Assembly (NCBI GenBank): GCA_965213625.1
Contig: CBDBZU010000004.1
Coordinates: forward strand, 3,616,001 to 3,680,000
Direction of reading: 5' to 3'
Source of the DNA: a bacterium
GTDB taxonomy: Bacteria; UBA8248
DNA: 64,000 bases
The notes below the pieces were generated by a model. That model worked only from the letters and a program-made list of their open reading frames with translations, was not told where the DNA came from and did no database searches. Below are positions 50,478-51,599 of this stretch, piece after piece; within the stretch, counting starts at the first letter, position 1; each line of letters starts with the position of its first letter. The position numbers were made by a program, and so were the translations under genes.

Positions 50478-51599
50478 TCAAACGCCGCTTTTCGCTTTTT
50501 TGAGCGTCGCGACGTTCACCGGGTGCGCGTTGCGGCGGCGCTTGTCGACGCGGACGCCTAGGCGCGCGGCATCGGTGATACTCAGGCCCGCTTCCTGCAA
50601 TTCTTTCCGGCTGAACCCCTTGCCGGGCCGCCAGCTCCCACGGGCATCTCTTACGAGAGGGAGGAATCCGTTATCCGAGGGCTCTTCCGGCTGCTCCAGA
50701 GGCGCTTCGGCGGCTACCGGGCCAGCCTCGGGCGCGCGCTCCTCGGGGATTTCCGGCTCAAGAGCTGTCGCCTCCACGACACTTTCGGCTATCTCCAAGA
50801 CGGCTTCTTCGTTTTCGAGTGGTAGTTCTTCCTCATCCGGCGACTCTTCCGGCGAGGCTTCCAATTCAGCCTCGGTCAGCGTCTCGAGCTCGAGTCCATC
50901 TTCCTCATACGGCGCTGCATCACTCTGCGGCAACGGCTCATGCGGCGAGACATCCTTGACCGGCGCCGCTGGGGGTTCCTCGGCCCCCTGAACGATTTCG
51001 TCCATGGCTTCCGGATCACTCTCTTGAGGAGTTTCCGTCTCGGGCGGGGAAGTCTCAACAACGCTTTCGAGCTGGAGTTCTTCAACTTCCTGAACAGGAT
51101 CGTCCGCAGCTTCCGGATCGATCGCTTGAGAGATTCCCGGCGCGGGCGCAGACGCTTCCGCTACACTTTCCGCTGCGACTGAGGGTGCTCCATCATCTTG
51201 CTCAGACGTCTCCGCCTCACCCAGCGACGCTTCTGATTCCGTTTCGGTCAACGAATCGAGTTCGAGGCCATATTCCTCGAACGGAGCGGCTTCAAGAGAT
51301 GGTTCCGGCGCATCCGGCGTCTCATCCGAGACTGGCGCCGTCAACGATTCCATGGCGGGGGCAGGGTCGCTATCACCAGCGTCCGCTCCGTTTGCCGAAT
51401 CCATGCGAGGCGGCTCATCGGCAGCCAGCAGTTCCAATTCTTGATGAGAGTCATAGCCGCTGTCCTCCGTATCTCCCGCCGTATAAGGAACTCCCGGCTC
51501 GATGGCCGAAGGAGGCGGAATTTCGTAAGTTTCTTCTTCCGGCTCGGCAGAGGTGGAACCCTTGCGACGCGTTATACGGCTCAAAAAATTTTTCTTCAT
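50478..51599 (-). CDS. Acidic low-complexity protein with a C-terminal ribosomal protein eL13 (L13e)-like domain
   Basis: About 300 aa E/P/A-rich region, then [44 protein letters not shown]. Confidence 0.8.
   Translation of the reverse strand: [373 protein letters not shown]

Follow-up and report, generated by a model that had tools for sequence, protein, structure and literature searches.

The eL13 fold is taken to be a feature of archaeal and eukaryotic ribosomes, which raises the question of what an eL13-like domain is doing at the end of a bacterial gene. The gene in question lies on the reverse strand of a stretch of 64,000 nucleotides (hereafter the window) from a bacterium of the GTDB lineage UBA8248 (assembly GCA_965213625.1, contig CBDBZU010000004.1, positions 3,616,001 to 3,680,000). 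A first-pass annotation, made from the sequence alone, had described its product as an eL13-like domain carried behind about 300 very acidic, probably disordered residues and a short basic N-terminus, and had proposed a horizontally acquired module repurposed as a membrane-tethered or chaperone-like factor. The gene, whose family is referred to as family A, and its C-terminal module are located as follows.

50478..51599, reverse strand: the whole family-A gene, 373 codons plus stop, encoding 373 amino acids (aa).
50481..50684, reverse strand: eL13-like C-terminal module, residues 306-373, a beta-hairpin and three helices with a charge of +8, recognized by profile, PDB sequence and fold matches.

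The identity of the module was examined by profile, sequence and structure comparisons. Pfam PF01294 (Ribosomal_L13e) matched residues 323-360 (model positions 62-99 of 180) with 34.5 bits and an E-value of 2.5e-8, above the cut-off of 24.9, and the NCBIfam model of archaeal L13e, NF008914, matched residues 321-369 (model positions 26-74 of 83) with 59.4 bits (E 2e-16), short of its equivalog cut-off of 96 bits. At E≤10 the Pfam scan of the window protein found no family besides PF01294, and neither an SRP54-type NG domain nor an FtsY domain. Using the last 71 residues in a phmmer search of PDB sequences, eL13 chains came first (6rm3_LL0, microsporidian, E 3.6e-8; 9e6q_AH, E 7.3e-7), entry 9E6Q being the Pyrobaculum calidifontis 50S subunit as given in its report (10.1101/2024.11.12.623245). 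For the last 72 aa, AlphaFold2 run with 14 family sequences gave a model with a predicted local distance difference test (pLDDT) value of 82.6 that consisted of a beta-hairpin and three helices, and in the full-length model the pLDDT was 87-95 across residues 311-370. Foldseek comparison of the module model with the PDB gave 49 matches at E≤0.001, with a query TM-score (TMq) of 0.56-0.68 and 29-40% identity, and all 50 listed chains were eL13 from ribosome or pre-60S entries. Among 14 family members the mean column identity of the module was 84%, and the signature held in common with eL13 read G[KR]GFS..EL..AGL....A..[IV].VD.RRR, five further residues, and NV..L; in the bacterial module, conservation falls on the basic and glycine residues of this signature. 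In eL13, the N-terminal region (helix H1, hairpin, H2 and H3) binds extensively to 28S rRNA, as described in PMC10665555. Collectively, the Pfam, NF008914, phmmer and Foldseek results agree in making the C-terminal module a homologue of the part of eL13 that binds rRNA, the beta-hairpin/H2/H3 core, and the two comparisons proposed by the first-pass annotation, HMMER with PF01294 and structure against eL13, both led to that protein.

The homology takes in the beta-hairpin, H2 and H3 and runs into the following helix. Against the crenarchaeal P. calidifontis protein the module aligned ungapped across 47-48 residues, whereas mammalian eL13 required a 4-residue insertion, so that the spacing fits an archaeal form; scores of the family profile against microsporidian (45.6 bits), kinetoplastid (about 41 bits) and crenarchaeal (39.9 bits) eL13 were alike and do not fix the donor as archaeal or eukaryotic. 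The segment GFSxxELxxAGLS (residues ~327-350; window 50481-50693) also resembles the tandem 10-residue repeats of Legionella IcmE/DotG, which appeared in the PDB searches with summed E-values of 4e-6 and 1.8e-9 and no match strong as a single stretch; these sums of weak GFSxxELxxAG-like repeat matches were read as motif resemblance, and homology to DotG/IcmE was dismissed.

Several properties set the window protein apart from eL13 as a ribosome component. It holds about 50-60 eL13 residues, without the eukaryotic H1 or the C-terminal helix, and it is not a small free-standing basic protein, the module being fused behind about 300 acidic disordered residues (305 of the 373 aa). A full-length search that scored 8000 candidates returned 112 proteins at E≤0.001, and a precomputed PF01294 hit was present in 104 of these; the named entries were called 'ribosomal protein L13e' and came from Nitrospinae/Nitrospinota bins (three) or a Rhodospirillaceae bin (one). 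Among 51 genomes of the phylum, PF01294 was found in 18, namely the window's genome and 17 of 22 congeners, and in none of the 28 genomes of 14 other genera, while NF008914 added a single congener (G023) and scored above its equivalog cut-off in none of the 51. The copies, one to three per genome and variable in length, stand outside ribosomal operons. Based on this patchy spread within one genus, the copy number, the lack of an equivalog match and the metabolic neighbours described below, family A is not a ribosomal protein and is lineage-specific. The automatic NCBI name is therefore misleading, as it would wrongly imply an archaeal-type ribosome component in bacterial bins. Being lineage-restricted and non-ribosomal, the family also bears out the earlier proposal of an acquired and repurposed eL13 homologue, though not, as shown below, the membrane role attached to it. 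As to an origin on mobile elements, tblastn with the module gave 0 matches in 50,697 phage and 72,556 plasmid records, no IMG/VR locus was found, and BFVD had 0 fold matches (E≤0.001). Beyond the phylum, the spread of the module was gauged by a word-seeded search, a type that overlooks distant relatives.

The window's genome carries a second copy of 317 aa that is 57% identical (G000:C4:914451-915404; L002 1453-2406, L042 9451-10404). It lies upstream of ZnuC/ZnuB-like ATP-binding cassette transporter genes, with an IS256/Mutator-family transposase 2.4 kb away and an autotransporter and a subtilase nearby; a 114-aa open reading frame (ORF) beside it has no Pfam match and is probably spurious. 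In congener G031, three eL13-like modules were found (C1:1852697-1852840, 1944397-1944543 and 2098612-2098761), two of them within open frames only 115 and 149 aa long that may be truncated or frameshifted copies.

A second bacterial setting of the module was revealed by searching with the module alone among longer proteins, since the full-length search had been swamped by acidic low-complexity candidates. Five proteins of a different architecture (P0125-P0129; 689-819 aa) ended in the same module, with Pfam scores of 22-27 bits and NF008914 scores of 42-54 bits, so that the survey of homologue architectures suggested in the first-pass annotation did yield a second one, here called family B. 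Its members (630-844 aa) combine a basic Trp-containing N-terminal stretch, a variable acidic or Ser-rich region, a PRxIGGRR motif and a conserved centre of about 480 residues belonging to no known family; some also have a ~75-aa insert, putatively immunoglobulin (Ig)-like as read from the sequence. Within the phylum, a search with one of the five proteins matched the centre in G023 and G025 only, which are two of the five congeners without family A. A compact helicase of the Druantia type of phage defence (DruE), 1387-1425 aa long, followed family B in all four readable loci, and one further metagenome locus, which ends before the helicase, is left out of this count. The four pairs are as follows.

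L036 4049-10202 (G023): family B and DruE, adjacent genes.
L037 2742-9498 (G025): family B and DruE, adjacent genes.
L043 1887-8076: family B and DruE, metagenome locus.
L045 5320-12079: family B and DruE, metagenome locus.

In G023, family B starts right after a tRNA-Asn gene, carries a divergent eL13-like module at its end (17.9 bits in Pfam, 39.5 bits for NF008914) and overlaps a 1425-aa helicase with DEAD, Helicase_C and MZB (MrfA-Zn-binding) domains, which PADLOC assigned to DruE (3e-154). The metagenome helicases of L043 and L045 were 65% and 61% identical to it over their full length, and there too the two genes overlap, an arrangement read as translational coupling. In G025, the helicase (PADLOC DruE, 2e-156; DEAD, Helicase_C and MZB) begins about 200 bp downstream with no overlap, and family B ends instead in a module like the RNA polymerase omega subunit, with 32.9 bits for Pfam Rpb6 (cut-off 26) and 43.1 bits for NCBIfam omega, below the cut-off of 58. 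Thus, the eL13-like head is present in three of the four family-B/DruE loci and the omega-like head in one. One metagenome family-B/DruE locus adjoins two small ORFs, a putative PIN-type toxin-antitoxin pair.

Druantia systems join a DruE core to variable partners (10.64898/2026.05.12.722862). In subtype III-B, the partner is DruH and the DruE is a compact form without PLD domains (10.64898/2026.05.13.724758). DruH serves as a scaffold with many Ig-like domains, and its C-terminal domain contributes to the binding of single-stranded DNA (ssDNA) (10.64898/2026.05.12.722862). Family B resembles DruH in standing directly upstream of a compact DruE in every readable locus, and in three of them with the eL13-like head at its end. 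PADLOC gave no match for P0125, P0127 and P0129 (E≤0.1) or for the L036 and L037 proteins (E≤0.01), and family B was not filed as DruH because no model matched at these thresholds. Family B with its compact DruE looks like a candidate Druantia III-like variant that has not been described. In the main text of a survey of YprA helicases (PMC12458937), the words L13, ribosomal, Rpb6, omega, DruH and disordered are absent, and its supplements may list DruE-associated genes. The window protein itself differs from DruH in lacking a central globular part, a DruE nearby or in its genome, and a PADLOC match.

The relation between the two families is confined to the module. Aligned by hhalign, family A and family B matched over the last 67 columns only, with a probability of 98.8%, an E-value of 6.9e-17 and 39% identity. 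A quick unrooted tree was built from 118 modules; its 110 family-A rows formed one tight cluster and the eight family-B rows stood on long branches, the two being split by one branch (SH-like approximate likelihood-ratio test (SH-aLRT) 85). The tree fits a single, young origin of family A and, being unrooted, gives no direction.

In front of the module, the window protein consists of a basic peptide and a long acidic region (the "tail" below), in which repeats and short motifs were recognized as follows.

51561..51599, reverse strand: basic N-terminal peptide, residues 1-13, charge +6, conserved in family A.
50685..51560, reverse strand: polyanionic, predicted disordered region, residues 14-305, charge -84, from model confidence, composition and codon use.
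51204..51515, reverse strand: repeat unit 1 (residues ~29-132), which matches a second place in the same gene with 38% identity (E 1.4e-4).
50832..51158, reverse strand: repeat unit 2 (residues ~148-256), the second unit of the disordered region.
51414..51461, reverse strand: short motif 1, residues 47-62, with E56 and L57 conserved in at least 90% of 35 aligned sequences.
51240..51284, reverse strand: short motif 2, residues 106-120, with Y110 and L117 conserved in at least 90% of the same 35.
50868..50912, reverse strand: short motif 3, residues 230-244, from a motif regular expression.

The tail, which the first-pass annotation had rightly called acidic and probably disordered, contains 22.3% E, 14.7% A and 13.7% P, and the full-length model had a pLDDT below 50 over most of residues 1-306. 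Its GC content at third codon positions was 0.57, against 0.75 in the module and 0.75-0.87 in neighbouring genes, the tail being richer in A/T-ending codons. Because of the internal match and the extra units in longer homologues (several matches per gene in G017 and G020), the tail is, as judged by sequence comparison, built of predicted repeats of about 105 residues; at the DNA level these are too diverged for the tandem repeat finder, which returned just a 12-nt, 2-copy trace. The alignment of 35 members showed the basic N-terminus, the islands YEIPPP, ELEL and EEYGLxLExL within variable acidic sequence, and the strongly conserved C-terminal module. The tail carries conserved motifs of the form Y-G-x-[DE]-[LF]-E-x-L; a motif regular expression, applied to 113 proteins, found none in 28, one in 56, two in 25 and three in 4. 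The N-terminal peptide, whose basic character had also been read correctly, was found by regular expression in 95 of 113 family-A proteins, and in 101 anchored sequences R8 was kept in 100%, R11 in 94%, R12 in 90% and K13 in 98%. A search with residues 1-135 for a precursor of the acidic part matched the same 18 of 51 genomes only, and no tail-only relative was found with this query.

Hfq, with its C-terminal tip, and HMGB1, with its acidic tail, are nucleic-acid-binding proteins with autoinhibitory acidic tails. By analogy, the window protein would likewise pair a basic fold that binds nucleic acid, here a predicted one, with a disordered acidic stretch as a possible competitor of the ligand; its tail is, however, far longer (292 residues, charge -84), contains large repeats with conserved hydrophobic motifs, and precedes the head in the chain. 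FtsY A-domain and ZipA tethers and PopZ acidic scaffolds also place a long disordered linker, acidic and rich in Pro and Glu, between a short peptide at one terminus and a small folded domain used for binding. The window protein may be likened to these in outline, but it has no NG/SRP54 domain, transmembrane helix, significant amphipathicity or oligomerization domain.

The genomic setting of the gene is a slot between a tRNA gene and a hydrolase gene.

49959..50033, forward strand: tRNA-Asn(GTT), one border of the variable slot.
50036..50472, strand not assigned: AT-rich stretch of 437 bp between tRNA-Asn and the 3′ end of the gene, for which a sponge-metagenome relative has just 48 letters.
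51610..51614, reverse strand: Shine-Dalgarno-like GAGGG, 10 nt 5′ of the ATG, read from the sequence.
51791..52666, reverse strand: alpha/beta-hydrolase gene, the second border of the slot.

The first-pass annotation had named a chimeric contig as one way in which its proposal could fail. Contigs of the sequencing runs X1 and X4 tiled 49500-52900 with zero differences, and a 14.4-kb contig of run X5, from a different study and labelled sponge metagenome, carried a 93%-identical gene flanked by the same tRNA-Asn and hydrolase. Because of this tiling and the independently preserved gene order, the locus is free of chimerism and assembly artefact; the habitat reading draws on this long X5 contig. 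Promoter and terminator scans at the gene gave nothing exceeding shuffled sequences, and no sigma-70 consensus site was seen upstream. The 437-bp spacer has a GC content of about 0.48-0.52, and the tRNA was the sole Rfam match over 49800-51900, none falling in the spacer; within it, a 40-codon ORF at 50171-50293 on the forward strand (MNWRKNKKSTSQNIWKTIFVLVGCVILTGCS...) has a lipoprotein-like signal with an LTGC lipobox-like site. The neighbours are metabolic or transport genes (the hydrolase, a flavin mononucleotide (FMN) reductase, a luciferase-like oxidoreductase, an NmrA-like protein and DctM), and neither this neighbourhood nor that of the paralogue offered a functional link.

The tRNA-Asn, which lies 444 bp from the stop codon of the gene, close to the ~450 bp first estimated, had been considered a plausible integration site. 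The same tRNA-Asn borders the slot in L003-L006, L022 and L036, and the contents of the slot vary: genomes of the window's subclade have family A there, congener G033 has nothing, and G023 has family B, DruE and a transporter-like ORF (by eye), the order in G023 being tRNA-Asn, family B, DruE, about 3 kb, and then the window's hydrolase and FMN reductase. In G034, a transporter-like ORF (by eye) lies directly past the hydrolase. The X5 relative has 1160 letters between the gene start and the hydrolase, against 180 in the window (51620/51801), a length difference that may be a further sign of slot variability. Neither the window nor the G023 island contained an integrase or a direct repeat of the 3′ end of the tRNA; in the island, the only tRNA-like repeat, 80% identical, falls within DruE and was put down to chance. 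The hotspot idea is thus supported by comparison between genomes, which suggests a variable slot, while the att-like repeats and integrase of a classic integrative element, and signs of recent insertion, were lacking.

Within its subclade, the gene was kept between the hydrolase and tRNA-Asn in four congeners, whose flanking proteins were 76-99% identical and whose family-A proteins were 43-91% identical. Judged by this synteny, the gene is vertically inherited in the subclade and is not a recent insertion. Against two orthologues, the ratio of nonsynonymous to synonymous substitution rates (dN/dS) was 0.47 and 0.38 for the whole gene and 0.44 and 0.38 for the tail alone, and five neighbouring genes gave 0.03-0.22. 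With values below 1, tail included, yet above those of its neighbours, the gene is under purifying but relaxed selection and is not decaying.

What such a protein does can be proposed with less assurance, the domain identity and non-ribosomal status being much firmer than any mechanism. The reading that we tentatively prefer is that of a non-ribosomal, three-part nucleic-acid-binding protein, in which a defence-island module has been joined to a polyanionic scaffold, with a role related to genetic conflict. The eL13-like module would circulate in bacteria as the C-terminal head of the compact-DruE partner, family B, and the window gene would be a single-origin offshoot that kept the head only and gained the acidic scaffold. 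Because the eL13 hairpin/H2/H3 binds 28S rRNA and its basic and glycine positions are kept, the head may bind the phosphate backbone of structured RNA or ssDNA through its conserved R and K residues (R..R.GKGFS...DKRRRN). The polyanionic tail could compete with or mimic nucleic acid in cis, giving autoinhibition and fast release, and partners could dock onto its repeated short motifs. On this view, the protein would handle nucleic acids in connection with conflict with phages or other mobile elements and would not be a structural part of the ribosome; a conflict role appears the likeliest because the one other bacterial home seen for the module is a DruE partner, the slot is variable, and copy and repeat numbers shift.

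A number of observations weigh against this proposal. Because the training of AlphaFold2 included ribosome structures, the fold match does not count as evidence independent of the sequence, and the eL13 segment is held in place by rRNA in the ribosome and may not fold alone. The similarity of families A and B is confined to the module and their tree is unrooted, and neither points to a direction or manner of domain transfer. In the genus, family A occurs in 18 genomes, family B with DruE in two, and neither in three; this apparent mutual exclusion was rejected as evidence because a single clade split may explain it. No DruE-like match (E≤1e-30) and no family-B gene occur in the window's genome or in any other genome with family A, and therefore any defence role would be free-standing. 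The stable synteny in the subclade is unlike that of a usual mobile defence gene, the window protein has no match in PHROGs or PADLOC (E≤0.01) and its neighbours are metabolic, and the tail charge of -84 far exceeds what masking a +8 head needs.

Of the other explanations, a factor that docks onto the ribosome or rRNA survives best, although we consider it unlikely. The head would bind the cell's own 50S subunit or its precursor, and the tail and N-terminus would be a tether to the membrane or another structure, a spacer or anti-aggregation brush, or part of an assembly or hibernation helper, a reading that takes in both the membrane-tethered and the chaperone-like factor of the first-pass annotation. 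The head does correspond to the rRNA-binding part of eL13 as described in PMC10665555. The plan of anchor peptide, linker and head may resemble that of the FtsY and ZipA tethers, and the exchange of the family-B head for an omega-like module would fit a common theme of docking onto gene-expression machinery. On the other hand, bacterial ribosomes have no eL13, the gene is outside ribosomal-protein operons, and the family is not needed for ribosome function, since 5 of the genus's 23 genomes, a total that counts the window's own, lack it, as do all 28 genomes of other genera. The membrane tether in particular, which the first-pass annotation had suggested, is not supported: the N-terminal peptide has three hydrophobic residues only (hydrophobic moment 0.55-0.59, mean hydrophobicity -0.4 to -0.7), its moment was equalled by 2315 of 10000 shuffles (23%), and the window protein has neither a transmembrane segment nor a domain of the signal recognition particle/FtsY type.

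More doubtful is the idea that the eL13-like and omega-like heads are swappable modules that mimic or dock onto the expression machinery, with the window family as a free-standing decoy or sponge. The heads would sit on the sensor or scaffold subunit of a new Druantia III-like system, like the integrated decoys of plant immune receptors, and family A would be such a head fused to a nucleic-acid-mimicking polyanion, a decoy for phage (or host) factors that target RNA-protein machines.

An exported factor of a sponge symbiosis is less probable again. Here, once the protein was delivered into sponge cells, the head and basic patches like nuclear localization signals would reach nucleolar pre-60S particles or rRNA, and the tail would interfere with or monitor ribosome biogenesis of the host. 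The 93%-identical orthologue in the same slot on the X5 contig fits a sponge habitat, as do further runs labelled sponge metagenome, these with small shares only; the family is lineage-specific, multi-copy, repeat-variable and fast-evolving, and microsporidian eL13 scores as well as the archaeal protein. However, no signal peptide or recognizable secretion signal was found and no secretion-system genes adjoin the gene, the other bacterial setting of the module is with a cytoplasmic defence helicase, and dN/dS below 1 gives no overall sign of positive selection. The module is also not a recent capture from the host, because its spacing fits the archaeal form, ungapped against Pyrobaculum eL13, and mammalian eL13 needs an insertion. 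A functionless remnant of a decayed family-B/DruE island, kept by chance, is highly improbable: G023 does hold family B and DruE in the same slot, family-A genomes lack DruE and the codon use of the tail is atypical, but 18 species genomes keep the frame open, with paralogues besides, dN/dS is 0.38-0.47 with the tail alike, the N-terminal peptide, short motifs and head are all conserved, the repeat units have expanded rather than decayed, and no similarity to the family-B centre remains.

Searches of the literature on L13e/eL13 homologues in bacteria, on sponge symbionts and on PF01294 found no description of family A or family B. The link to DruE changes what appears to be the most likely biological setting of the window family. 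Bacteria have put the RNA-binding core of eL13 to use in two non-ribosomal settings, an acidic orphan family in a genus that appears sponge-associated and a partner of compact DruE, and the head swap of family B, eL13-like in some loci and omega-like in another, offers a handle on how Druantia-type partners choose what they bind.

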